Below, in pieces: positions 28,636 through 43,531 of a stretch of DNA of 61,361 bases (its first letter is position 1; the number at the start of each line of letters is the position of its first letter). Both the position numbers and the translations under genes were made by a program. The DNA is from a virus (taxonomy: Duplodnaviria; Caudoviricetes), in the IMG/VR virus record IMGVR_UViG_3300030333_005476, positions 1-61,361 of that record. One strand, 5' to 3'. The notes under the pieces are model-generated. The model saw nothing but the letters and a program-made list of their open reading frames with translations, did no database searches and was not told the origin of the DNA.

Positions 28636-31600
28636 ATGGCAGGAATCGTAATACAATCAATGGGGCCTTTAACCGCCGCCCAATTAAATGAAAGACCTCA
28701 GGGTAAGGCCTTTCAGGCCAGCGCCCAAGGCTCGGGCCAAGTCATAAAAGATTATCACCTCTTGGACCCTGATAGCGTATGGTGGAGAACTGTTCACCCA
28801 GATGAAGGGGTTGTCATTTTTGGTCCAGAGATAATTAATGGAAAATTTGATTTAACTTCTGAGACTGTGTTACAACGCAGTAGACTTGCTGGAAATAACC
28901 TTAAAATTTCCCCAGCGGAAGCAAAGGCAGTTTTTGGGCTACTAATCGATCCGGATAATCCCAATGAAAAATTACATGAGAGCATCATGGGTGCCAGCAA
29001 GTTTAAACATAGCTCTTTTGTAGAAAAGTGGAGAGGCGTTGCCGCCACGGAAATCGCCAACCCCTTTAAGCAAAGATTTGATTATTCTTCCATGCAGAGA
29101 TTTCTTGGTCACGCAGTCAAGTATTACGCCGCTGCAAGCACTTTAAATTATTTAAAAGAGGCCGAAAACGCTAGGGCAGAAGCTATACAACAATGGGAGA
29201 CCGCCAACAGCGCATATTTAAGTAGCGGTGAGGGCGCAAGAAATACCGCTTGGGTAACTGAGTATAACGCTCAATTTCTCACTCAAGGCACCACAACATA
29301 TCAAGAGCTCATACCAGGTTGCCCCTACCCTTGGTGGAGCGGATGTTATCGAGACGTCACCGTCGCAAACGGAATGTATGGCTCCGCTTTGTCGGACCCG
29401 TGGCAAACTACAACTGACCCCGATTCATTAACAAGTCTTCAGAATCTTATTTCTAGAACTTTGTGGGAAAACGAACCCAGAGTAATAGCTCAGCTTGGGG
29501 AGTTTGATCCTAATTCTAACTTTAGAATGATCGCTTGGGATGAGGGTTTGAATAATTACGCTAGTTATTTAAACGAGCAGGGTGGAGCGGCAAACTGGCA
29601 GAGCTTGAGCTCCGCCAACAGCTTTTGGGACGTAGGAAACTTTAGAAATGAACAACTAAATCCTGGAGCCAGACCTGAAAACTTATCATTTGCAACATCA
29701 AAAAAATTCTTAAAAGGATTTTTAATAATGGGCGCATGCCTAGCGGGCATAGGCGTACTCGCTAGGGTATGGGGTAAAATAAGAGAAGATGCCAATAGCA
29801 CTTTTAATGCAAACGGCTTTGAGTCGAGCGAGTCGTGGAGTCATCATACCAGTAGAGTTTTAGCGCATACCATAGGTCAATCTACATTGACTACTTGGAT
29901 TAAAAACTTGATTCAAGATCATGACCCTACTCAATTTGCTTTAAACGCGTATCAGGGCGGCAAAGACGTTGTCGAAAAATGCAAAAATATTATACAAAGC
30001 CTGTTGACCTCTGGGCGACGTGACGTTGGCGGAGACTTTATAACGAGTGATTATAGATTAATTGATTCGACATATGAGTACACCCTTGGCGGACAAGGCG
30101 CGCTTCTAGCCACTACTAATACAATAGGTGTTAATGTTACATTAACGAACTCAAAAGTCCTTGTCTTAAAAGCTAGCAAGGTTGAAGACGTGGTGAAAGA
30201 ATATTTCAAGGATTTACCTGTCACAGCGCAGAACTGGCGACAAAAAGTAAACGCTAAGATGCACGAACAATTTTACTCTAGCGCCAAACGTGATGCAATT
30301 CTTTCTCTTGCTGAAGTGGGCGTTCCTGGCACTGGAGCCTTCAAAATTGTAATTCAAGATGGTGGAAACGGTTATCCTTATGGAAGGGAGAGGCTAGGGG
30401 TAAATGAGCACGGTTATTATATTTTCACTTTTGATCCCGCCACCAATAGGGTATTGATAACAGGCGTTTCTGATCTCAAGTACGGCTTGGCGGTGAAGCC
30501 AGACTTTCTTGACGAACGGCAATTTTTAACTGGTAGATTTTATAAGATATCTCATGGCGTACTTTTGGAAAACTTTAAAGAGCTTAGATCAAGCTTGAGT
30601 CAAATATCTAATATCATCAAAACCAAGAAAAGCACCGCTTCTAAACTCAATGCAAAATTAGTGGCACAACAACAACAGAATGCCAAGAGTATTTATTGGA
30701 ACACGCCGGTTGAATTACCTCATAATTATAAAACCGCAAACCAGTTTAAACACTTAAACTTAAAAACATATTTAGATAGCGACGGAAACCTTTCCCATAT
30801 CCCAAGCAACAACAAACCACACCAAGTTTGGGGAGTTGAACTCATTGAAGTTACTAAACAAAACGAAAAGACTCAAGCGTGGGAGGAGCACAAAAATAAA
30901 GAGGGTCAATTCGAAATTCCAGACGGGCAAGTACCACTAAAACAAGTGGCAGAATTTAACAATGGAACCACTTACGCTACAGCCCCTAATGTTGAAGACG
31001 TGGCTTGGGTTGGGTATCTAAACGGAGGGAGTCGCCATTTCAATTCACCACGTAACCCAGCCTTTAATATACTTCCGAATTCACCAACAAATGAAGCTCA
31101 GAAAGGTATAGCCAAAGAAGTTTTATTCGAAAAAACTATTGTACGAGGACGAGACAGAGGCACATACAGAGCTAAAATAAAGTTTTGGGGTTGGGGGAGT
31201 ATATTTGTTGCCCCTGCGGACGCTGCGGCCGGTGTTGCGGATTCTTTGCTTTACGAAAATAGACTAAGTGATCATTATAAGCTGGCTCATTTTTACGACA
31301 CTATATGCAAAAAGCTAGATGCAGAAATATACAAAGCTTGTTCGGTTATAAATAGAAAATTTCAAAACCATACTGGCGGCTCAAAATTTGGTACGCTTAT
31401 ACCAACGTTTTCGGCTGCAATAAATAATTACGGAATGCTTCAGCGCGCCTTTGTTGATACTCGAGGGTGGGACCTTAATAACGCAAAGAAAGAGGAAGGC
31501 GATCACCAAGACGGGGGAGAAAACCTTAAGGGCCACGGAGATTTTACCGCTAATCATTTTCACGCAACCAACACCAAAACATTCAAGCTTAACATGGGAG

Positions 31601-34600
31601 CGGTGGGTGATTTTAACGGTGGATGCAAAGTCCTAAGCGTTGGCGTAGGCCGAACCACGTTGGCTGACTGGGACAAAAATAATAACGTCCATGCGAAAGC
31701 CAAGACAAAGCCTGCGAATCCTCAAGCAGTAAAACCTAAAGATTTAGACGGTAACGCTTACGCCTCGAATACCCAAATACAGTATGACGAAATTAAGTTC
31801 GAATCCATGACTTGGGACGGAGATGGCACAATTCACAACGACAAAGACTCTAAGGATTTTACCTTGGCCTTACATACTGAATTCGGCATAACCATACAGG
31901 GCCATGTATTTGTGAAAAATGTTCACGTTAGAAGAGTGGTGGGCGGCGAATTTTACAGCGCAGATCACCTTACTAACGAAGAGAAAAGTGTTTGGGGATT
32001 GGACCCGAAGCAAGCACAAAAATTTGATGGAAGATTTTTCATTTGCGAGCCCTATATAACGGTAGACTTCGCAGAGTGGGAAGCGGTAAAGGGAAGTGTT
32101 TCGAGCGGCGGTGCAACCGACGCGGAGCCAGAAAACTCTCAAGCTGAAGATGATCCGGCCCCCGAAACTAGGACCGCACAAGCGTTAGAGCGTGCGGTTC
32201 AAATCGAAATGCAGCAATTTAATGCAGCAAACAATATCGAGTGGGCTTCTATGTTTAATAGTCAATGGTCCAAGCTGGAACGCATCGCTTATAAAACCTC
32301 TAGGAATCACAACTTCATAACTCCATACCCTTGGAGTCGAGCAAAGCTAACAAATATTTTCTCGCACAACGTTGACCCAGATGATGGCGCAGTTAATGCA
32401 CCTGGCAAACCTGCAACTATATTAAAACAAATATATAATATAGTTATTCAGATGCCGAAGGCGGACCCAAACGCTAAGCCGGGCACCACTGACCCCAGAA
32501 AAATTGGTGAGAGTGAGCTTAAGGCTCTTAAGTCACTAACTTATTACGTACCCACTTTTAGTAGATGCGGCAAAAACAAAAACAACATTTCTTTAAAAGA
32601 GACTTTCTTCAGCAACCAAACCTCTTACAACTTGTTTACCGCTAGCCAAAAAGTAGACGAAGCTCTTTGCGGTAAATATTCCTGTGGGGCAGTCCACGCT
32701 TATACCAGAGTTCCACCAATAGGTCTCTCTAGAGCCGCTGGCGTGAGCGACTCTAACATGAAACGAGTCGATAGCCGAGGAAACGTACTAAAAGATGCTA
32801 ATGGTAATGATATAACTTATACCGATTACAAGATTGATGGCCCCAAAGATGACCCACTGCCAATCTGTGGTAATGCGACTATCACCTTTAGATTTTTCCC
32901 AACGCAAAACACGCAAGTAAGAAGCAATCTTTATAACGAGTCCGTTAGTAGTGCTTTTCTTGGCCAAACGGGCTTTAACATAAGTGATTCTTGTTTGCCT
33001 TTGTATGAGGTTTCGGATACTAATGGAAAGGTCACTTCGGTAAAAGACGCTGATGGTAATGTGATCTTTACGGTGCCAAGTAAAAATTGGCTGGCTGAAA
33101 TTCCTGTACGATCACCCGGATTCTTCGCTAAGCTGGTTGGCAAGACAGAAGCCGACTACACACCTGCTACGGCAGATGTAACTTTACCTGAAATCTGGGG
33201 CAACTGGAGCAACGCTCAATTCAACCGGAAAGCGAGTGGTGGAAAAGAATCTTGGACATCAGGTTGGGTTCAAGGGGCTCTGAATCATGACAACTTTGTT
33301 TCTAGTATATTTAAAATAATCGTTGAGCTTTTTGTGGGCGACGTGTCTCCCAATTTGGCTATATTCCACCTTAGAAAAGCCTCCGCTAAAACACGCGTTT
33401 GGGATTACAAAAACGTAGGAACCGTTTTGGGCTACACATATGATCTACGGAAAGCTTACGAATATCACCGCATGATGCAAGATGGTTGGGCTCCTTATGC
33501 TCATGAATACGCGGGCGAAGACGCGATATCCACCAAAAACCCGTTTAAAAAAGGCGAAAGAAACACATATAACGGCAATAGTATTGCCGTATATCATCTT
33601 GCTCACGTTGGAAAAATCTTACAAGGTTTTTATAACGACCTTGCCTTGAGTAAAGAAACTTGGACGTCAAGCAACACAAAAGCGGCGCCTATTGATCCAT
33701 TTAACGAGAGCACACTAACAAACAACATTCACCCTTCTAGAAAACAGTTTGTTTCGCATGTTTTTGGTACACTTAAATATGACAACAAAGACCTCAGTCT
33801 TGGCTTTCGTATGAAAGGTTACCATGGTAGCCCACTTGAAATAACGGAAAATTCTTTTGAATCGTATAACCAACCGGAAAAAACGCTCACCGTAACTAGG
33901 ACTCTTTCTGGTCTGTGTTATCCCGTGGTAAACGATTACGGCTACAAGTGGGAGAGGCTCCTTTTAATGGAGGACTCTGATAAGTATTACGATAAGAAGG
34001 CGATTAATCCGTTTGAAAATTTCCAGCCTAGGTCGCAACAAAGACAAAGCAACGGCGCAAAATTAGGGCACTCCGTATTCGCTACTAGCGATAACACTGT
34101 ACCCCTTGGCTGGAGAGAGATTATTGACGGGATTGACGAAAAACACAATGGGACTATTTTTGCTCAGACTTATACCAATACCGCTCAACTATCAGAGCAT
34201 TACGGCTGGAACAAGACGATAAAAGATTATAAAAAAGAAATTTTAGGAAACCCTAACGCTACTGACGCAGAGATTGAAAAAGCTTGGAACGGAGATGCTG
34301 ACGCTATGGTTGAGTCCAACTTTCCAATCAGAGAATCTCAAGAAATAACTGGCCCTGATGAAAACGACGTGGTGCAGGAGGTGCAGTTGTATACTGAATC
34401 TCAAGGCACGCAGGGCGTAGGATATAACCCTTGGGCTGGTTTTGACATGTCAACCAATACGTCAGATTACGCGGCGGGAGAATTCATAGACAGCAGCCTA
34501 GACAACATTAATAATCAAGAAATTAGGCCTCCCCTTGATGAGACTTTCCCAAGTAAAAACGAATGGAATGATTTAGCCAAAGCAATGGACGAAAAAATAA

Positions 34601-37600
34601 AGGGAATGGCACAAATATTCCCTAGGATTTATATCACTGATTATAAATTCGGATATCAAGCGCAAGAGAATACTGACGGATCACTTATTTCTATACCGAT
34701 TAACGCAGACGAAAATGGAGTGGCTAAAAACACCAATATAATTGATCTTAAAAACTTTATTAAAGAATATATTAAAGCGGACAAGTTAGATCAAAATGGT
34801 AATCCATCATGGAAGTCTGACTCTTGGAGCGCTTGGGATAAGGCTTACAAAAACGCTATCGAAGGAAACTGGGGGCTGGAAGGTACTGGCTCATCAAAAA
34901 CCGCTGCAATGGCAGACCTTAGCGGCCAAGCTCTTTTATACTCTGAAATGGTGAATAAATTTCACTATTTAGATTGGGATGATGCCGCTGTGAACGGGCA
35001 CACCACTGAAATTAAAAACGCTGTGCCTATGGATGCTTGGGGGGATATCAGCACTGATGATCAAAAAGCCAAAATTACTCATACTGTAGGCTGGGGTCAC
35101 ACCGAGGAAGAGGCAGAAAATAATGCTCGTTTTGCTTTAGAAACCGAACTCATAAACAAACTTTTCACCAAGGCCGTTCCAAACAGTTGCATGCTTAACT
35201 ACGATGTTACGGATAAAACTACTTGGAAGGTGCAAAGCAACAATCCTTTAGATTCATTTAATCTTAATTGGAAGAGAAAGAGTAGCATAACAACAACCAT
35301 AACCGACAACCCAGAAACTCCTTTTTGTCAAGCGGGAATCCCCGCTGATGCAGATGATCATAAAGGTTGCGCTTGGATTCCTAGAAAATATGAAATTATA
35401 AACCCTGATACTTCAAGTTATACCAACTCACAAAATGTAAGCTTCGGGCCTATTTCAGACAATACAAAGAATAATCAAGATAAGTTTACATCTTTAAAAT
35501 CAAGATACCACGCAGGGAACAAACCGGATGGTAGGGACATGGGCGAAGTGTACAAAGTAACTGACGGATGTCTTCAACCGAAAATAGTGAGTTGGAATAG
35601 ACCTTTCAACGAGCTTTATGGTTTTTGGTGCGGCTCAGACGTTAGTGAAAATGGTAAAAACGCAGCTAAGGCTGACGCTTTAAGTCAATTGGCTTACGTT
35701 TATCATAACGTAATACAGTATGGATCGCCACAGTCGCCACCCCCTAACCCCTCTAGTTTTGCTGGAGGAAAAATTCTCAATGAGCCCTCAGCTAACGTAA
35801 ATATGGGTTGTCAATGCAAATTCCCAGACCAAGACGCCTTGGAGAACTCAAGCCAAGCCTTTGATCCTGCGAGCAACAAATGGAAAGTAGACAACAATAA
35901 CTACAGCGATCTGAAAAATCCATATCAAGTAAAACATTTAAGCTTTACGGACTACATAGAAGACAGTGTTGGTTATATTGCACAGCACGGAGGACAAGGA
36001 ACCGCTGGATATAGAACAGTTACTAACAATCCAACCATCTACACAGTAGAAAAAGGATTTTGCAGTATAGACGGATACAATAATCAAGCGGACTGTACGA
36101 GCAACGGTGGTACGTGGACCTCTAAAACTAGAGTGTCAGCAAAAGGAAGCACTTCGCAAGAGGCTTCAGATAGAGTGAACGGCTTGTTGAACATGTATAA
36201 GAGTAGTGATAATCCAGCTTATGGTATTTATTTCGGCGCATCTACAAACAATATACTTAGTCACAGCAATTGTACAGAGTGCAATGGAACATTATCAACT
36301 GTCGAATCAGATTATCAAAACTTGAATTTCATAGCTTGGACTCATGGGGACTTCAGTGATCATTTGTACAACATGGATTCTTTTTCGTATAATGGTGACG
36401 CAGGGGGCAGCACCGATCCATCCGATTGGAACGGCTGGGGCAACACATCTAATATTGACTATTGCATGATGCAGAATGCTTACGACAGCCCACCCACAGC
36501 CAACGGCAACGGCTACACTGGAGAATACGGACAGCATGGTCGCGGTTATCTTCACAATGATACAGTTAGAGCTGATTGGACTAGATGGGCGCAAAGCGGA
36601 AAAATAAATATCCCAGTTGCTTCAGCGGGATCAACAGACACTACCCTGCAAGACTTGTACGAATGTATTCAAGAGCAAGCATTTGAAAAATACATAGGAA
36701 ATGACACTACTTTCACCAATGGGCTCAAAGACGTTCCGCCAGGTAATGATGTGCTCTTTTCCAACATGGGTGATTTTGGTAGTCAGTGGTATGACAGCAG
36801 TCACTCAAGTTATTTAGACCTAATTTCGGATGGCACCTACACCTCAACCGCTGATGGCACGGTCTTTGTTGATAGCGACACGATAGGCGTTAATGTAGGC
36901 GCAGACGCTACCGCAACAAATCATTACAGTAATTGGGATATACCATACGGCAACCCGCCGAACGCAGGAAACGCTCAAAACGTTAACCAAAGCACTTGCG
37001 GGTGCGAGCAAACTACTTTGTGCAGTCATGCGGACGCGATGACTGCGGGATGGGACATACCAGGAGGAACTAGTGCGCCAAATTCTACATACCAATGCTA
37101 CGGAAGAGTCGTTACTAAAAATTATACAGACGGCAACAATAACATCATACCGATCTCTTTGTACGAACAAGTAATCTCTGGCAAGGCTACAAATCCGGAT
37201 GGCGACACAAGATGTGGAATTATATCTCAATCATATTGGGGCACACTTACTCATAAAGACTATGACGGAACCAATAGTTACACCGCTAAAATGGTGTTGA
37301 ATGATTCTTGCGAAACTTACGCGTTTGAGATTTCTGGGCTGTGCCCAAGTGTGGATTCAAACATACATAAAGTTGAAGTCTCAGGAACTTTGAGTTGCGG
37401 GTTGACTCAGCACAAGTATAAGGCTGGACTTTTAAGGAATAAATATAAAGGATACCTTTTTGCTAGCGGGTTAACTCCTTGGGTTACTGGTACAGCAGAC
37501 TGGACAAATGGAGGAATAACAGTTTATAAGAACCCCACCACCAAGCGAGTCGCAACAAGATTCCACGAACAAGAATATGTAGTAAACTACGGCACCGACG

Positions 37601-39405
37601 CTAAAGCCATAGATATCGATTATTCAAAAGCTCAAAAAACTCCAAATAATGCTGGAGCCGTTAGTAACAGTGCTCCAATAAATAGGAATAGAGGAGTTTT
37701 GATTTCTTCGGTTCCTAGCGCTAATACTGCGGGCCACAACCATTTGAGCACCGCTACCGCATGGGCATTAAAGCTGGGCACTTATACACAAAATTGGGCA
37801 AAGGTCAAATACAACGCTAGAACGCCGAAGGGGAAAGGTCCTGAATGTCGCGGGTGGGATGCGGATGGTAATTGTATAGAAATTGATCCAACATGGAAAC
37901 CAGGTTTTGATACCAACGAAAATGGTTACGGAGACCTAGTGTTTATGGGCGGATGGGATTTAATTAACCCCGCTTGGGGTAACGCAACAACAAACGAGGC
38001 TGACCAGTATTTAAGCAACACCCAAGGCGAGAGCGTTATAATTTATGACCCCAGCCGCGCGGTTGGCTTCGGTAAGAAATTTCGAAGACAAGGTGGGTCG
38101 AAAGGTAAAACGGTAATAAACGACACTGCCAGCACCGCAGTTAAAAATGCTTACGTTTTAAAGGTGAATAACAAAACTTATGGCGGAAATTCTGCGGCCA
38201 AACAGGGCGTGATCCACGCGGTATTTTATACCCAAGAATCTTATGAGAAGTACATACAAAATATTCACGTAACTAAAAACGTGCAGGTTTTAGATTATGG
38301 ATCAACAACAGCCGCTTCTGAAACTAGCTGGATAAATATTCCATCTATAAAAGGAGTGAAGGCCGCGTCCGGAGCTAAATCCAAAACTTTTGTTGGCGTT
38401 CAATACGCTATTCTGAAAACAGACACAGCCGCTTGCGAGCACTGCTTGTCTACTGAATTATCCGAAGTGCCTGACAGCAGGACCCACGATTATTTTAAAG
38501 ATAAAATGTACTTTGGCGAGCAATTTTTTATAGGCCAGAAAGTTAAATGGGATATATATAAAGGAAATTACGTTTTCAAGGTTCCTCTAAAATTGACAGG
38601 CAATGACGTGAAAAGCCCTCTAGATGGTTCTAACGTAAGGTTGGAGGATTGGGAAGAGGCTGTTACTCCTCAAGAAGCGGCTTTTGATGAAGACCTATCT
38701 AGGGAACATTATTTATTAACCACGAATTCCCTTAACAGTTGGCAACCACCAGCTCTTTCGTGCGGTGGATATTCTAAGCTAGATAAAATAGTAGACTTCT
38801 CAACTTGGACAAATAGATCGTGGTCACAGATTCCTAAGGGTGGAATAATCGAATGGAACGATGGAAATATGCCAGATGGAGTTATGTATAAGGGTCCGGA
38901 CGCTAGCTCTAATACGATTGTCGGGGAATCGAGCAGCTCAGTTGGCAACGACGTATTAGTTGGCGAGACCATCACTGAGTTTGATGTTAACCCTCAAAAC
39001 TACTCAACGGTGATTGGGAAAGAAAAATACTATTTCCGAGTTGGTAAAATGGTTCAGGTGTACAGCATATCTACCCCCACTAAATACTTAATAGGAGAAA
39101 TAAAACAGTTTGCCATGAATGGTAATTTAGCACGAATAGATATTAAAGTTACCGAAGTGAGCGCCACCTTCGATGACCCCGCCGACAAACAAGTACAATT
39201 AATAGCGCACCCATATAACATGCTTTTTGATGGTGGGGCTTACGATGTACTATCCGAGAGGTTCCCGAACAAGGGTAAAGCTATAACCAACGTAACTGAG
39301 CGTAGAAATGTTGGAACAAAGTCCAAAGATTTAGACTTAAGCAAGGGAGCGTATGACGTCGAGGGCGCTGACAATAGCTACACAAGTAATACTTGGGGCT
39401 CATAA
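28636..39405 (+). CDS. Giant 3589-aa protein, probably virion-associated, function unknown
   Basis: Uninterrupted 10.8-kb ORF; GTGTAA at 28610; AAGG upstream. Confidence 0.85.
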   Translation: MAGIVIQSMGPLTAAQLNERPQGKAFQASAQGSGQVIKDYHLLDPDSVWWRTVHPDEGVVIFGPEIINGKFDLTSETVLQRSRLAGNNLKISPAEAKAVFGLLIDPDNPNEKLHESIMGASKFKHSSFVEKWRGVAATEIANPFKQRFDYSSMQRFLGHAVKYYAAASTLNYLKEAENARAEAIQQWETANSAYLSSGEGARNTAWVTEYNAQFLTQGTTTYQELIPGCPYPWWSGCYRDVTVANGMYGSALSDPWQTTTDPDSLTSLQNLISRTLWENEPRVIAQLGEFDPNSNFRMIAWDEGLNNYASYLNEQGGAANWQSLSSANSFWDVGNFRNEQLNPGARPENLSFATSKKFLKGFLIMGACLAGIGVLARVWGKIREDANSTFNANGFESSESWSHHTSRVLAHTIGQSTLTTWIKNLIQDHDPTQFALNAYQGGKDVVEKCKNIIQSLLTSGRRDVGGDFITSDYRLIDSTYEYTLGGQGALLATTNTIGVNVTLTNSKVLVLKASKVEDVVKEYFKDLPVTAQNWRQKVNAKMHEQFYSSAKRDAILSLAEVGVPGTGAFKIVIQDGGNGYPYGRERLGVNEHGYYIFTFDPATNRVLITGVSDLKYGLAVKPDFLDERQFLTGRFYKISHGVLLENFKELRSSLSQISNIIKTKKSTASKLNAKLVAQQQQNAKSIYWNTPVELPHNYKTANQFKHLNLKTYLDSDGNLSHIPSNNKPHQVWGVELIEVTKQNEKTQAWEEHKNKEGQFEIPDGQVPLKQVAEFNNGTTYATAPNVEDVAWVGYLNGGSRHFNSPRNPAFNILPNSPTNEAQKGIAKEVLFEKTIVRGRDRGTYRAKIKFWGWGSIFVAPADAAAGVADSLLYENRLSDHYKLAHFYDTICKKLDAEIYKACSVINRKFQNHTGGSKFGTLIPTFSAAINNYGMLQRAFVDTRGWDLNNAKKEEGDHQDGGENLKGHGDFTANHFHATNTKTFKLNMGAVGDFNGGCKVLSVGVGRTTLADWDKNNNVHAKAKTKPANPQAVKPKDLDGNAYASNTQIQYDEIKFESMTWDGDGTIHNDKDSKDFTLALHTEFGITIQGHVFVKNVHVRRVVGGEFYSADHLTNEEKSVWGLDPKQAQKFDGRFFICEPYITVDFAEWEAVKGSVSSGGATDAEPENSQAEDDPAPETRTAQALERAVQIEMQQFNAANNIEWASMFNSQWSKLERIAYKTSRNHNFITPYPWSRAKLTNIFSHNVDPDDGAVNAPGKPATILKQIYNIVIQMPKADPNAKPGTTDPRKIGESELKALKSLTYYVPTFSRCGKNKNNISLKETFFSNQTSYNLFTASQKVDEALCGKYSCGAVHAYTRVPPIGLSRAAGVSDSNMKRVDSRGNVLKDANGNDITYTDYKIDGPKDDPLPICGNATITFRFFPTQNTQVRSNLYNESVSSAFLGQTGFNISDSCLPLYEVSDTNGKVTSVKDADGNVIFTVPSKNWLAEIPVRSPGFFAKLVGKTEADYTPATADVTLPEIWGNWSNAQFNRKASGGKESWTSGWVQGALNHDNFVSSIFKIIVELFVGDVSPNLAIFHLRKASAKTRVWDYKNVGTVLGYTYDLRKAYEYHRMMQDGWAPYAHEYAGEDAISTKNPFKKGERNTYNGNSIAVYHLAHVGKILQGFYNDLALSKETWTSSNTKAAPIDPFNESTLTNNIHPSRKQFVSHVFGTLKYDNKDLSLGFRMKGYHGSPLEITENSFESYNQPEKTLTVTRTLSGLCYPVVNDYGYKWERLLLMEDSDKYYDKKAINPFENFQPRSQQRQSNGAKLGHSVFATSDNTVPLGWREIIDGIDEKHNGTIFAQTYTNTAQLSEHYGWNKTIKDYKKEILGNPNATDAEIEKAWNGDADAMVESNFPIRESQEITGPDENDVVQEVQLYTESQGTQGVGYNPWAGFDMSTNTSDYAAGEFIDSSLDNINNQEIRPPLDETFPSKNEWNDLAKAMDEKIKGMAQIFPRIYITDYKFGYQAQENTDGSLISIPINADENGVAKNTNIIDLKNFIKEYIKADKLDQNGNPSWKSDSWSAWDKAYKNAIEGNWGLEGTGSSKTAAMADLSGQALLYSEMVNKFHYLDWDDAAVNGHTTEIKNAVPMDAWGDISTDDQKAKITHTVGWGHTEEEAENNARFALETELINKLFTKAVPNSCMLNYDVTDKTTWKVQSNNPLDSFNLNWKRKSSITTTITDNPETPFCQAGIPADADDHKGCAWIPRKYEIINPDTSSYTNSQNVSFGPISDNTKNNQDKFTSLKSRYHAGNKPDGRDMGEVYKVTDGCLQPKIVSWNRPFNELYGFWCGSDVSENGKNAAKADALSQLAYVYHNVIQYGSPQSPPPNPSSFAGGKILNEPSANVNMGCQCKFPDQDALENSSQAFDPASNKWKVDNNNYSDLKNPYQVKHLSFTDYIEDSVGYIAQHGGQGTAGYRTVTNNPTIYTVEKGFCSIDGYNNQADCTSNGGTWTSKTRVSAKGSTSQEASDRVNGLLNMYKSSDNPAYGIYFGASTNNILSHSNCTECNGTLSTVESDYQNLNFIAWTHGDFSDHLYNMDSFSYNGDAGGSTDPSDWNGWGNTSNIDYCMMQNAYDSPPTANGNGYTGEYGQHGRGYLHNDTVRADWTRWAQSGKINIPVASAGSTDTTLQDLYECIQEQAFEKYIGNDTTFTNGLKDVPPGNDVLFSNMGDFGSQWYDSSHSSYLDLISDGTYTSTADGTVFVDSDTIGVNVGADATATNHYSNWDIPYGNPPNAGNAQNVNQSTCGCEQTTLCSHADAMTAGWDIPGGTSAPNSTYQCYGRVVTKNYTDGNNNIIPISLYEQVISGKATNPDGDTRCGIISQSYWGTLTHKDYDGTNSYTAKMVLNDSCETYAFEISGLCPSVDSNIHKVEVSGTLSCGLTQHKYKAGLLRNKYKGYLFASGLTPWVTGTADWTNGGITVYKNPTTKRVATRFHEQEYVVNYGTDAKAIDIDYSKAQKTPNNAGAVSNSAPINRNRGVLISSVPSANTAGHNHLSTATAWALKLGTYTQNWAKVKYNARTPKGKGPECRGWDADGNCIEIDPTWKPGFDTNENGYGDLVFMGGWDLINPAWGNATTNEADQYLSNTQGESVIIYDPSRAVGFGKKFRRQGGSKGKTVINDTASTAVKNAYVLKVNNKTYGGNSAAKQGVIHAVFYTQESYEKYIQNIHVTKNVQVLDYGSTTAASETSWINIPSIKGVKAASGAKSKTFVGVQYAILKTDTAACEHCLSTELSEVPDSRTHDYFKDKMYFGEQFFIGQKVKWDIYKGNYVFKVPLKLTGNDVKSPLDGSNVRLEDWEEAVTPQEAAFDEDLSREHYLLTTNSLNSWQPPALSCGGYSKLDKIVDFSTWTNRSWSQIPKGGIIEWNDGNMPDGVMYKGPDASSNTIVGESSSSVGNDVLVGETITEFDVNPQNYSTVIGKEKYYFRVGKMVQVYSISTPTKYLIGEIKQFAMNGNLARIDIKVTEVSATFDDPADKQVQLIAHPYNMLFDGGAYDVLSERFPNKGKAITNVTERRNVGTKSKDLDLSKGAYDVEGADNSYTSNTWGS

Positions 39406-39436
39406 ATTTAGAATTTTAAAGAAAAAAAAAGTATAA

Positions 39437-39736
39437 TAATTGACCATATTGGGTGAATTCGGGGAAACTCTCTTTTGAGACAATCCCGAGCCAAGCCAGA
39501 GTGGACTGAGTTTCTCTGGAAGGTGTAGAGACTAGAGGGTGAGTTCCAACGATAACCCCTCCACGAGCGCCCAACGCCGAAAGGTGAAGATATAGTCCGA
39601 ACTATATGGCGACATATAGAAGCTGTAATTAAAAAAACAGTGATAACATAATTGGATTAGTGGGAAGTCGGCTCAGTGTTAGCGCCGCCCCGAGCCAAGG
39701 GTTGGCTCGCTAATAGACTGTCCCGCTGTCGGTTAA
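39437..39736 (+). ncRNA. Group I intron ribozyme, ORF-less and intergenic, apparently circularly permuted
   Basis: P3 TTGGGTG(39449)/CGCCCAA(39568); P4 TTCGGGG(39458)/TCCCGAG(39484); P5 TCTC/GAGA; P6a CCAGAG/CTCTGG; P7 GAGACTA(39528)/TAGTCC(39593); J8/7 AAGATA; P8 CGCC-GAAA-GGTG; P9 CTATATG-GCGA-CATATAG; P9.0 GA/TT before omega-G 39654. Confidence 0.9.
39655..39734 (+). ncRNA. Predicted 80-nt structured exon, released as a circular RNA
   Basis: Bounded by the predicted 3' splice site (39654/39655) and 5' splice site (39734/39735); stems TAGTGGGA/TCCCGCTG, AGTC/GACT, TGTTAG/CTAATA, CGAGCCAA/TTGGCTCG. Confidence 0.7.
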
Positions 39737-39754
39737 CCAAAAAGGAATAAGGAA

Positions 39755-40138
39755 ATGCCAGCTAAGAAGAAAACAACTAAAAAGGCTTCTGCACGTAAGG
39801 GTAAGAGGGTTGACTCTCTTTCTCAAGCCCACGGCAAAGAAGAGAAATATGAGCCAACCACTTTAGATCAAATTTGGGGTGATACAGGAATGTCCAAGTA
39901 TAAAACCTTGGATGTAGAAGAATACGAGGAGCAAATCAAAGAGTATTCCAAGTCCGAGCTTCAAGCTCACGCCGTAAAAGTAGGTTTAATTCCAGTAGAC
40001 AACCCCACGCAGTTAAGAAAAAGACTGATGACCGAGTTTAGGAAGCACGCGTCTGTGTATAAAGCGCCAATTCACGCGAAAAAAGACGAAACTCCCATCT
40101 CTCCAGAAGTACGTAAAATATTAAATGAGGGAAAATAA
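39755..40138 (+). CDS. Basic protein with a small helical domain (Rho-N/SAP/HeH-like)
   Basis: Lys-rich N-terminus; YSKSELQAHAVKVGL.....QLRKRL helix-extension-helix pattern. Confidence 0.7.
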   Translation: MPAKKKTTKKASARKGKRVDSLSQAHGKEEKYEPTTLDQIWGDTGMSKYKTLDVEEYEEQIKEYSKSELQAHAVKVGLIPVDNPTQLRKRLMTEFRKHASVYKAPIHAKKDETPISPEVRKILNEGK

Positions 40139-40180: not shown

Positions 40181-40519
40181 ATGGCTGCTCATTATGATTT
40201 AAATATTACTCAAGGGAACTCCTTTCATATAAGGCTTGCTGTCGTTTCGCCTACAGGCACGCCTTTTGATTTGACTAATTGGAATTTGAGGGGCTTTGCT
40301 AAATTAAAGTATTCAGAAAGCAATATTCTTATAGACTTGCAGCCCACCAAAGCATCCCCACAGACTCAAGGGCTTGTTGATATATCTATACCAGCCAGCT
40401 TTACCAAAACGCTCCCTATTACAGAGGGCGTTTTTGATATAGAAATGTATGATGATTCTGGTTTCGTAGACAAACCAATCAAAGGCTATGTAAGAATTTA
40501 TCCGGAGGTTACATCTTAA
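40181..40519 (+). CDS. Small beta-sandwich tail/fibre attachment protein
   Basis: YDLNITQG..F...DLTNW...FDIEM...GYVRIYPEVT pattern common before phage fibre genes. Confidence 0.7.
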   Translation: MAAHYDLNITQGNSFHIRLAVVSPTGTPFDLTNWNLRGFAKLKYSESNILIDLQPTKASPQTQGLVDISIPASFTKTLPITEGVFDIEMYDDSGFVDKPIKGYVRIYPEVTS

Positions 40520-43500
40520 ATGTCGCACACAGTACAAGTCATTACGTCAGGGAAAAGTCTTCAGGCTGTTCCTGTTTATCCAGGTAGCAATGTTCCCGTA
40601 GTAATTCAGGGCACAGTTGGGCCATCAGGAGCGAGAGGCGGCGCTGGGCCTTCGGGCGCTACCGGGCCTGCTGGACCTCAGGGCATACAGGGAATTGTTG
40701 GTCCGTCTGGACCAGTCGGGCCAGTTGGTCCCAGTGGACCGCAGAGCCCAATCACTGGACATTTAATCCCCGATGCGAGTGGCGTATACGATTTAGGCTC
40801 CCAAGGAAAACATTTTAGGTCTTTGTACCTTCACGGGCAAACTATTCATAGTTATGACCCTGCTGCTGGAGGATACAACTCTGTAAAAATAGAGGACGGA
40901 TCAATTTCTGTAACCAAACCAGGACAAATAGTAGAGGAGTGTGCCAGCACCACTTGGTCACAATCAAGCACTTACTCTATAAACGATACGGTCTGTGCTC
41001 AGGTTCCGGGAACCACTGAGTATCAATGCTACGAATGCCAACCCAATTTAACTTCGCTGCCAGACGTAAGCGGCCTTTGCTGCTTGAATAATAATTGTGT
41101 TGTAACCACTCAGGCCAACTGCTGCGCTTCTGGAAGCAGTCTATTTTATCCGAATGTGTATGATTGCAACGCAATGAATATTTGTGATGCGAATGGTAAT
41201 GGTAGCGATCCTTGCCAAGACTCATTTGGAACTGGCGTATCTGCAAACTGCACAGGTGTTCCAGGAAATGACCCGACTTGGCAATATTGCAGCGCCCCAC
41301 CAACGGTTGTAAATACTGATACATGTCCGTGCGCGGATTGGGGGAGGCTTTATAAATTTGGGGGATATGTTACTGATGATAAAAGCCTAGGAGAAGGAAC
41401 GTTTGCTTTTTGGAGAAACCCGTACAACAACGGAACCTCTATGGAAACTGTTGAAAGAGTTCTTTGGAATGACAACGACGCAAAAGGCGAATCAACCATA
41501 TACTTTAAGGATGACGCTCAAAACAAGCGATATGCTTGGCCCCTTGATGAAGACTGGATGGGACGAGACGGTCTTGAGAAAATGCAGAATTATGGGCTGG
41601 GTGGAACATTCGGAGTTTTTAGAAAAGATAAGCCGAATGAATACGTAAAAATTCAATTGAGAAAGCCGACAGTCAACATTGGCGGGCTGAAGGAATCAAC
41701 ATGGGCAAGATTTATTAACGCCTTAAAGAATGGTCAAGCGCTTAATCAAACCTACAGCTTTGTACCTACTGGCGCGAAGTTTTTAGGAGCAAATTGGGAA
41801 AATTTTAATTACGGTTGTGAAGAAGCTTCTGTACCGTATTGTCTTCTTCCAAACGGTAGCACAAGCCCCCTGTTGAAAGAGGCCTGTGAGGATGCTGGGG
41901 GAACATATAAAGAAAGCGAGCCCTTACCGATTACTAAGTCTTGGGGCCAATCTCAATTGAATGGTCCTGATTATTCTTCATACAAATATAATACCAAAAA
42001 TGGGCTCGGAGGATTTAATGGGCCAGATTGGAGCAATACGAGCATAAGAAGTGCTTTAACAGCGCAGCAAATGATGGACGAAGTAACTTCAGCTTTTAAT
42101 CAATGGGCAGATTTATTCAATGATGTTTATAAAGACGTTAAAGACTTTAGCGTGTCCTTTACTAATTTAGGTTTAGAAAACCCAGCTAATTGGGTTGGCA
42201 ATGTAAACGGTATAGAAAACCCAGCTCAATACATTGATGATGTTCGTGAAAAACCAAAAAAACCTCAAGCACTAGAAAATCTCGGTGGCTTCAGGATGGC
42301 GGAAGAGCCCACAGAAGCCTTTAAAGATTTATCGTGGAACAGTAATAATACCGCAGGGTGGCCAGGAGGTTTTAGATTTTCGTTAGTTGATTTTAATATT
42401 AAAAATGAAAACACGCTTGCATCGATGAAGCCTTTGGCTGATGTATTTAGTGATAGTCACAATAAGCCAAGTTCAGATATTATGATTAACGCCAACGTTT
42501 GTTGGAGATTGGATTCTCAAACCGCAAATTATAATTTAATTATAGATACTACATCTGAAAATAAATTTTTTGTACCTACCTTTTCGGGTTACGAAAAGGA
42601 TGCTTGCGATACTGCCAAGCTTACAAAAGAAGGTTGGAATCTCAGAGATTTAGGCGCTTTCCCAAACGCTATTGGCTGCGGCTGGATTGCCCGCAATGAC
42701 TCACCCACAATTGCGGTACAAGTTAAACTCCAGGGCACAGGAGAGCGAACAGTAGTAGTGGCAAAGAAAGGTTGGGCAGATGGTTTTATATCTCTCTATC
42801 CGAAGTTTGGCAATACTAAAAGCTTACAACACGTTATCATGCATGAGATAGGACACTCTCTCGCCTTCAATCACGAAAAAGATGGCTGGCATATGGAGGG
42901 TTTGGGAAATGTAGAAGGAGATAAGAAGCTCCTGTTCTCGGGACCGAAAAAACCCTTCTCTTTAGATCGTCCAGCATCCGTTCAGGACGCCGCAGTTCAA
43001 GCCGCGCAACCCCACAAAACAGAGAACCATCTTTCTTCATTACGAGGGGTTCATAGAACCCATTGGAAAGAAGCGTTTGTGATAATGTCCTCATCGGGTC
43101 CCATAGAGAATTTAAGAGAACTTTTCCCAAATGGGGAAGCTAAAAACTGCGCGCTTCATAGAGAGTATGCAGAAGCATTGGGGTTAATTCATCTAGCGAA
43201 ACACAATCCTTTGGGATACAGAAAGGCTACTATCTTACAAATTACTGAAAACACTTTAAGTCAGCCGTTAAAAATCGGAGAAGAGGTGTGGATATGTTAT
43301 GAGCCTGATATGACTGAAAAGATGGGCGCGCCGCAGCATTTGAATACAAAGGAGAACATAAGAATCTACGAAGAAGAGAGCTTCGGGTGGAATAAACCCA
43401 AACCCATGCAGGAAGGGGAAATAGACGCACTAATACGAGGAATCAACGAAGGGAAGTACGATAACATCGGCCCTTGGGACCCGAATAAAAATTACATCGA

Positions 43501-43531
43501 CGGAAAAGAGCTAGAAAAGGAGGATCATTAA
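40520..43531 (+). CDS. Fibre protein: collagen repeat, Cys-rich region and metzincin (M10-like) domain
   Basis: Gly-X-Y run; many Cys; AFNQW...HEIGHSLAFNH. Confidence 0.8.
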   Translation: MSHTVQVITSGKSLQAVPVYPGSNVPVVIQGTVGPSGARGGAGPSGATGPAGPQGIQGIVGPSGPVGPVGPSGPQSPITGHLIPDASGVYDLGSQGKHFRSLYLHGQTIHSYDPAAGGYNSVKIEDGSISVTKPGQIVEECASTTWSQSSTYSINDTVCAQVPGTTEYQCYECQPNLTSLPDVSGLCCLNNNCVVTTQANCCASGSSLFYPNVYDCNAMNICDANGNGSDPCQDSFGTGVSANCTGVPGNDPTWQYCSAPPTVVNTDTCPCADWGRLYKFGGYVTDDKSLGEGTFAFWRNPYNNGTSMETVERVLWNDNDAKGESTIYFKDDAQNKRYAWPLDEDWMGRDGLEKMQNYGLGGTFGVFRKDKPNEYVKIQLRKPTVNIGGLKESTWARFINALKNGQALNQTYSFVPTGAKFLGANWENFNYGCEEASVPYCLLPNGSTSPLLKEACEDAGGTYKESEPLPITKSWGQSQLNGPDYSSYKYNTKNGLGGFNGPDWSNTSIRSALTAQQMMDEVTSAFNQWADLFNDVYKDVKDFSVSFTNLGLENPANWVGNVNGIENPAQYIDDVREKPKKPQALENLGGFRMAEEPTEAFKDLSWNSNNTAGWPGGFRFSLVDFNIKNENTLASMKPLADVFSDSHNKPSSDIMINANVCWRLDSQTANYNLIIDTTSENKFFVPTFSGYEKDACDTAKLTKEGWNLRDLGAFPNAIGCGWIARNDSPTIAVQVKLQGTGERTVVVAKKGWADGFISLYPKFGNTKSLQHVIMHEIGHSLAFNHEKDGWHMEGLGNVEGDKKLLFSGPKKPFSLDRPASVQDAAVQAAQPHKTENHLSSLRGVHRTHWKEAFVIMSSSGPIENLRELFPNGEAKNCALHREYAEALGLIHLAKHNPLGYRKATILQITENTLSQPLKIGEEVWICYEPDMTEKMGAPQHLNTKENIRIYEEESFGWNKPKPMQEGEIDALIRGINEGKYDNIGPWDPNKNYIDGKELEKEDH

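Follow-up and report, generated by a model that had tools for sequence, protein, structure and literature searches.

A predicted ribozyme-first group I intron in an uncultured marine phage, and the conserved rod-shaped RNA that may serve as its exon

Introduction

What is a short, GC-rich and strongly folding RNA doing directly behind a group I ribozyme in a phage genome? The locus in question belongs to an uncultured marine phage, known from an IMG/VR record that holds a 61-kb fragment with an estimated completeness of approximately 40%. All 61,361 nucleotides of this fragment were analysed and are referred to here as the window. The order of genes at the locus is a 3589-aa structural gene (28636-39405), the ribozyme, and a 127-aa Lys-rich gene with its ATG at 39755, and the neighbourhood as a whole is a virion structural module. 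An initial annotation, made from the sequence of the window, had proposed that the 80 nt behind the ribozyme are the exon of a permuted intron, are released as a rod-like circle, and act in trans; the coordinates and the sequence that it gave for this segment are as first described. Here we examine how the segment is related to the ribozyme, whether its shape is conserved, and which of several roles best accounts for it.

Results

The features of the locus are collected in Table 1. The upstream gene appears to end where its reading frame ends. Relatives of the last 401 residues of the 3589-aa protein are few (just 10 among 1.84 billion representatives, one of them 3926 aa long). The frame ends in ...SNTWGS before its stop codon, and a homolog, P0008, with 34% identity over the last 136 residues, ends in ...SDTWGS; this shared ...TWGS ending makes the gene's own stop look genuine. 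In 21 of 22 related units, the upstream frame stops 36-94 nt before the guide sequence of the ribozyme, and the tails of these frames are unrelated. As judged from the reading frames, the ribozyme interrupts no gene: the arrangement is not that of a canonical cis-splicing intron, since a conserved stop of its own closes the upstream frame and the downstream gene has its own ATG and ribosome-binding site.

Table 1. Features of the ribozyme unit and its surroundings (positions in the window).
Feature	Position	Strand	Basis or remark
GTATAAT, possible -10-like or late-promoter-like motif (uncertain)	39431..39437	+	just 5' of the guide
Internal guide UU-GACC, predicted 3' strand of P1	39440..39445	+	pairs with GGUU^AA, 39731-39736 (caret: predicted cut)
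Group I catalytic core, P3 to P9	39446..39619	+	RF00028
Ribozyme 3' tail: hairpin CUGU..ACAG, GAUAACAUAAUUGG, omega-G	39620..39655	+	similarity to relatives
79/80-nt rod: putative exon between the 3' and 5' splice sites, predicted circle	39655..39734	+	fold, covariation
GGUU, predicted 5' strand of P1, with the putative 5' splice (or cleavage) site behind U39734	39731..39734	+	guide match
Short leader with AAGGAA ribosome-binding site	39735..39754	+	would be the 5' end of the downstream mRNA
Gene for Lys-rich 127-aa protein	39755..40138	+	conserved neighbour of the unit

Orthologs of the Lys-rich protein, with 44-65% identity, are encoded downstream of every rod-type unit. The protein was assigned to no PHROG family, its best Pfam match reached 13 bits against a cut-off of 27, and in the Atlas it fell only in viral clusters annotated as "hypothetical protein". 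Searches of viral contigs by way of the C-terminus of the 3589-aa protein, the Lys-rich protein alone, or P0008 yielded no relatives. Metagenomes with matching contigs were marine, seawater and estuary samples. Farther downstream, 40520-43531 encodes a tail-fibre-like protein of 1003 aa, in whose N-terminal part there is a collagen-like run of G-x-y. A DNA contig from another metagenome (X3) carries a copy of the ribozyme up to 39657 that is joined to 72 letters resembling the sequence at 40518; the joined sequence is similar to the start of the collagen-like fibre gene, and the contig may represent a relative with a different downstream gene. Upstream of the guide, relatives carry motifs like TGnTATAAT or GTGTA at a distance of 8-25 nt. 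In the window, the spacing of the GTATAAT motif would place the start of transcription inside the guide, and a consensus promoter scan of 39200-39900 detected no promoter-like site on the + strand.

The ribozyme was identified by Rfam family RF00028, which matched 39378-39619 with 79.2 bits (gathering score 50) and 39438-39619 alone with 66.6 bits; the A/U-rich stretch upstream, in which the alignment draws a canonical P1 and P2, adds 12.6 bits. RF00028 was the only Rfam family to reach its threshold, and ARAGORN found no tRNA or tmRNA genes in the window. The core is about 80-85% identical to those of six relatives on viral contigs, and these relatives, together with contigs of other metagenomes, share 80-85% identity with the window. 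In the 3' tail, GTAATTAAAAAA..GATAACA..TTGG is near-invariant among the relatives; the UUGG is invariant, and the predicted omega-G would be either G39654 or G39655. The score of 79 bits in RF00028, together with close relatives that are ordinary introns inside coding genes, suggests that the core would be competent.

Taken at face value, the Rfam alignment describes a canonical intron at the 3' end of the 3589-aa gene, with its 5' splice site after U39387 and its 3' splice site after G39619, and the rod would then be just a hairpin of a 3'-UTR or of the intergenic space, for example a terminator, a stabiliser or an RNase III site. The alignment does begin at 39378 and run over model positions 1-253, its upstream part raises the score, and CUU in the guide region drawn there is a possible partner of the AAG that follows G39619. 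However, the P1 so drawn, which falls within the final codons of the 3589-aa gene, has just three good pairs, and splicing at these sites would swap the conserved ...NTWGS and stop for KL and a stop. The stretch that is shared with relatives, moreover, has a sharp start at 39433-39439 and an end at 39655-39663, and does not follow the limits 39378-39619. From these limits of similarity the unit begins at UUGACC, abutting P3, and ends in ...GAUAACAUAAUUGG, 35 nt past the Rfam end. When RF00028 was applied to 16 related loci, 14 of them passed and all aligned as model positions 1-253 with upstream extents that vary, and the alignment is therefore uninformative on the real P1. A terminator scan of 39200-39900 detected no sites, the hairpin being followed by AACCAAAAAGG and so by no U-run, and the rod is never met without the ribozyme. 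A canonical intron at this place is, in our judgement, extremely improbable.

The guide that abuts P3 finds its complement behind the ribozyme rather than before it. In the window, U39440, U39441, G39442, A, C and C39445 can pair with G39731, G, U and U39734, followed by A39735 and A39736. Three scans of viral contigs and one of metagenomes supplied 28 distinct units. In all 28, the guide matches its own tetramer downstream of omega-G, and the guide/site types are GGCC/GGCU (n = 16), GACC/GGUU (n = 8, including the window) and GCCC/GGGU (n = 4). Within the upstream 80 nt, the cognate tetramer was found in just three of the 28 units, and three carry a tetramer of a non-cognate type downstream.

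The P1 strands were aligned for the 22 units with exons of 74-79 nt; six units with exons of 18-56 nt (L217, L226, L227, L203, L238 and L249) were left out, as their 3' ends are unalignable. Every one of the 22 units has standard pairs at all six P1 positions and a G-U wobble at the cleavage site (G39442-U39734 in the window). At pair 8-332, 14 units have G-C and 8 have A-U; a second pair is U-A in 18, C-G in 2 and U-G in 2. Double changes number eight at one pair and two at another; the covariation counts, here and for the rod, take in related sequences, and the three guide types represent perhaps only two independent changes. Pairing was observed at 90.9%, compared with 5-53% in slid controls. 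The alignment supports a P1 in which the guide would pair with the downstream site, and in which that pairing is kept with compensating changes.

The relatives are built on one plan, namely the core, a variable stretch, a conserved GUCGGCU^AA and then the next gene, and the order of omega-G, rod or exon, and 5' site is kept in 28 of 28 units. In the window, the 3' splice site thus lies ahead of the 5' splice site, an order from which a circular exon would result. The comparison therefore bears out the proposal of a permuted exon whose basal stem unites the two splice sites, by way of the 28 guide matches and of the covariation of the rod described below. Such a permuted order, with the ends of the putative exon paired, is supported at this locus. 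A P10 helix between the start of the 3' exon and the stretch upstream of the guide was rejected as general support: in the window AUUA can form four pairs with UAAU at 39437-40, but in relatives the helix is, judged by eye, inconsistent.

The segment itself is unusual in the window. Its GC content is 0.60, against 0.417 for the window, 0.229 at 39620-39654 and 0.40 at 39735-39814, and a GC content of 0.60 or more was found in 0.9% of 6129 sampled segments of 80 nt. The initial annotation was therefore right to describe a GC-rich exon in the window, but the richness is not a conserved property, as related rods have a GC content of 0.42-0.54. The end-to-end fold that it drew was also recovered, with a minimum free energy (MFE) of -33.5 kcal/mol and a z score of -2.54, 3 of 200 shuffles being as stable, which is modest taken alone. 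The structure as first drawn has -29.1 kcal/mol. The two differ at the top of the rod, where the MFE structure has GCCG/UGGC and CCC/GGG around the loop GAGCCAA instead of CGAGCCAA-GGG-UUGGCUCG. All the pairings first listed are standard, and those of the lower rod are kept in relatives, but the apical hairpin is specific to the window: CGAGCCAA/UUGGCUCG is paired in 70.3% of cells, one of its pairs being unique to the window (1 of 8 sequences), whereas the MFE-type top is paired in 85.2% of cells (8 sequences). A 19-mer of the apical hairpin had no matches in viral contigs. Rfam was also checked for a known linear RNA class, and no family matched 39655-39734, even at E values of up to 10. The stop codons that had been cited against rolling-circle translation are present, but carry little weight in a segment of 80 nt.

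While its sequence varies, the shape of the rod recurs. Among 12 GGCC-type relatives, the rod consists of three helices. The basal helix has 8 + 4 pairs and a bulge of one base, an asymmetric loop of 6 nt follows it, and the middle and apical helices have 4 and 9 pairs; 93.3% of cells are paired, and 17 of 25 pairs have changed on both sides. None of 500 shuffles was as good, and slid controls reached 30-40%. RNAalifold, run on 16 sequences, found the same rod helices independently. In the GACC subgroup to which the window belongs (8 distinct sequences), 84.6% of cells are paired and 10 of 26 pairs have changed on both sides; the lower rod is retained, 7 of its 12 basal pairs having changed in both strands. 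Between the window and L222, for example, UAGUGGGA/UCCCGCUG is replaced by UAGACGGA/UCCGUCUG, and AGUC/GACU by AGCU/AGCU. The length of the rod is 74-79 nt in all 22 rod-type units. A model of the 12 relatives (R1) misses the rods of the window, L222 and L110 at E <= 1, which indicates that the rod of the window is homologous in architecture, not in sequence; a search of metagenome contigs with alignment A1 found nothing. The loops are specific to subgroups, with GUGCAG.G and an apical AUGC in the 12 relatives, and a C(C/U)AAGGG apex in the subgroup of the window. Structural conservation among homologs, on which the proposal of a structured RNA depended, is therefore present, and the comparisons support a conserved rod shape whose predicted helices covary.

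Other relations between rod and ribozyme were considered. The 11-mer CCCGAGCCAAG of the ribozyme (P4'/P6 strand, 39485-39495) recurs in the rod at 39689-39699, where its complement follows. This copy is partly kept in the subgroup of the window (CCGAGCUAAGGG) and absent from the GGCC subgroup; the repeat is possibly a misfolding or switch element. The rod was rejected as a degenerate copy of the intron, the best direct local alignment scoring 25 (reached by 1 of 300 shuffles) on an A-rich stretch outside the rod, and the best score of the reverse complement, 17, being matched by 114 of 300 shuffles; the two have in common just the 11-mer. Also rejected was a kissing contact between the apical AUGC and a GCAU in P9; the two are complementary in some members, but L134, L171 and L237 keep AUGC though P9 changes.

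Two contigs from RNA libraries run through the predicted splice sites: X19 record 3 (39514-39801, 0 differences) is colinear over both, and X20 record 13 (39537-39761) is colinear over the 3' site. Such contigs may stem from DNA carry-over and are uninformative on transcript ends or levels. They cover 39452-39806 and 40233-40700, but not 38600-39450. A back-splice joint from 39734 to 39655 was found in none of the assembled contigs compared.

We compared the loci of the Lys-rich gene that carry the ribozyme with those that do not. The gene has 273 relatives in viral contigs, and the ribozyme is present at 7 of the best 80 of these loci. Model R1 matches 5 of the 7 ribozyme-bearing loci and none of the 73 ribozyme-less ones among the best 80 of the 273, suggesting that the rod comes and goes with the ribozyme and is not an independent RNA. 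The presence of the unit at only 7 of these best 80 loci also implies that it is dispensable for the Lys-rich gene. The 73 ribozyme-less loci (L261-L339) have a gene order unlike that of the window: the end of a capsid-like gene (...GFYG.LEEGRVC.DAR...) and a strong intrinsic terminator lie before the Lys-rich gene, and a GTGTAA- or TATAAT-like motif precedes its ATG. The unit occupies the place of the terminator and promoter of these relatives. At one further locus, L095:2575-2640, a terminator-like hairpin with a T-run comes after the predicted cut site, some 120 nt ahead of the Lys-rich gene.

Because the terminator and promoter-like motif of the ribozyme-less relatives sit in the same place, the unit may have an equivalent role in forming the 5' end of the mRNA, and for that role cleavage alone could be enough: a cut after U39734 would set the leader of the Lys-rich mRNA, while the rod, as a tether, would stay linear on the 3' end of the ribozyme. 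Such a reading is favoured by the nearness of the ATG, which lies 2-41 nt beyond the 5' splice site in 21 of 22 units, and by L211:11088-11175 and L042:8678-8765, in which the Lys-rich start codon comes 2-4 nt past the predicted 5' splice site and cleavage would leave an almost leaderless mRNA. It is also favoured by the exons of sister lineages, which measure 18 nt in L227, L238 and L249, 32 nt in L203, 44 nt in L217 and 56 nt in L226, and by a P10 that, judged by eye, is weak in many members. The short-exon lineages carry guide/site pairs of their own (GCCC/GGGU or GGCC/GGCU), and in L238 the ATG follows 2 nt after the cut site. Yet the unit has the same omega-G and surrounding sequence, GAUAACA..UUGG, as the canonical relatives, and the paired ends of the rod bring the 3'-OH of its last U next to omega-G. 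A simple tether would, moreover, need less constraint than a length of 74-79 nt across 22 units together with conserved loops. We therefore regard cleavage without ligation as possible but doubtful.

The initial annotation had gone further in the opposite direction, proposing a trans-acting role for a stable ring, which might engage host defence or RNA-binding proteins as a decoy or sponge, or might take part in virion assembly. Loops that are conserved within subgroups while the stems covary would fit such a function, and so would the virion structural module in which the locus lies. On the other hand, the analysis yielded no sign of a target, a partner or expression, the loop motifs vary between subgroups, and the conserved loops could equally reflect tertiary contacts with the ribozyme. 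The unit is, moreover, absent at 73 of the best 80 Lys-rich loci, and the very short exons of sister lineages count against the proposal as well: with exons of 18-56 nt in the family, a functional ring cannot be its common feature. For the ring we thus consider a trans-acting role of any kind unlikely. It seems rather improbable that a stable, ribozyme-made ring would bind a phage or host factor (the Lys-rich protein, a host nuclease or a defence sensor) through its subgroup-conserved loops, and the decoy, sponge or virion-assembly RNA first proposed is very doubtful. The formation of mRNA 5' ends is the predicted common denominator of the family that we favour.

Discussion

The rod is probably the built-in exon, or linker, of a natural ribozyme-first group I intron that is permuted in L1 and lies in the leader of the Lys-rich gene, itself part of the structural module. 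In the mechanism that we propose from the pairing pattern, the guide UU-GACC at the 5' edge of the core (39440-45) would form P1 with GGUU^AA (39731-36) behind the core, and the rod, as a conserved helical connector, would hold the 3' splice site (omega-G 39654/55) beside the 5' site (U39734). In a first step, free guanosine or GTP would attack after U39734, freeing the downstream mRNA with a leader of 20 nt. In a second step, the 3'-OH of U39734 would attack after omega-G, which would free the ribozyme and close a ring of 79-80 nt whose cap is a GGUU loop. Both steps are ordinary group I chemistry. We hold cleavage after U39734 to be likely, and we lean, with more reserve, towards the formation of the ring in vivo.

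How does this layout compare with known ones? PIE constructs, reportedly made from the Anabaena tRNA and T4 td introns by Puttaraju and Been in 1992 and by Ford and Ares in 1994, are alike in that permuted splice sites lead to a circular exon via two normal transesterifications. PIE splits the intron inside its core, so that the halves flank the exon, whereas the predicted phage unit has a contiguous core in which only the substrate strand of P1 has been moved (in L1). Closer are the engineered ribozyme-first systems for circular RNA. According to PMC10415121, a target placed downstream of a Tetrahymena ribozyme yields circles. Such systems resemble the phage unit in having an intact ribozyme upstream and the RNA to be circularised downstream, a guide that pairs with the 3' end of the cargo, and a 3' splice site that precedes the 5' splice site. 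The phage unit differs in being natural, and in that its cargo would be a non-coding hairpin of 79/80 nt; the basal stem of its rod would act as do the antisense or homology arms that are added to engineered systems, and the fragment downstream of it is a genuine mRNA.

Canonical phage group I introns (RF00028; class B, for example L154, L173 and L144) share with the unit the core, the J8/7-P7 block and the GAUAACA..UUG tail. They lie inside coding genes and have P1 and P2 upstream of P3, and their match to the core profile starts at position 13-16, so that they lack the UUGGCC guide immediately before P3. Further canonical members of this family were seen inside capsid-like and other structural genes (L175, L123, L158, L168 and L177; class B), with up to three pattern matches in one locus.

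Among natural systems, a permuted group I intron is represented by the mitochondrial ND5-717 of corals (Corallimorpharia), the natural case cited by Roth et al. 2021 (PMC8637638). As described by Chi et al. 2019 (PMC6545197), ND5-717 is a giant of 18-19 kb that is mitochondrial and joins coding exons; the phage unit, in contrast, is compact (approximately 215 nt), with a putative non-coding exon, and interrupts no gene. Permuted group II introns also occur in nature, as PMC8637638 (2021) reports. This permuted ribozyme of the bacterial world is similar to the phage unit in being self-splicing, in giving RNA circles of unknown function and in interrupting no ORF, but belongs to another ribozyme class with branching chemistry. 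Lariat-capping GIR1, also treated there (PMC8637638), is derived from a group I ribozyme, resides in a 5' leader and creates the 5' end of a downstream mRNA; it differs in its one-step branching and in a remodelled core without P1. The main texts of the papers searched gave no phage or bacterial example of a naturally permuted group I ribozyme, and the letters "permut" do not occur in the main text of the group I intron database paper. Comparison of the sequences with these systems supports the classification of the unit as a natural, phage-borne variant of the ribozyme-first group I layout.

If active, the unit would be a natural counterpart of the recently engineered ribozyme-first generators of circular RNA, and a compact one (approximately 215 nt of ribozyme and 80 nt of cargo) that is borne by phages and occurs in at least three guide-sequence lineages. 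The conserved geometry of the natural rods could guide the design of a minimal scaffold for circularisation. Were a trans-acting ring to prove true, it would be the first natural trans-acting circular RNA made by a group I ribozyme in a bacterial virus. One short transcript, with GTP and Mg2+, offers a testable system in which to ask whether viruses that infect bacteria have functional circular RNAs. For the group I ribozymes themselves, an active unit would add to intron removal and lariat capping a third outcome, in which the 5' end of an mRNA is matured and a small ring is shed.
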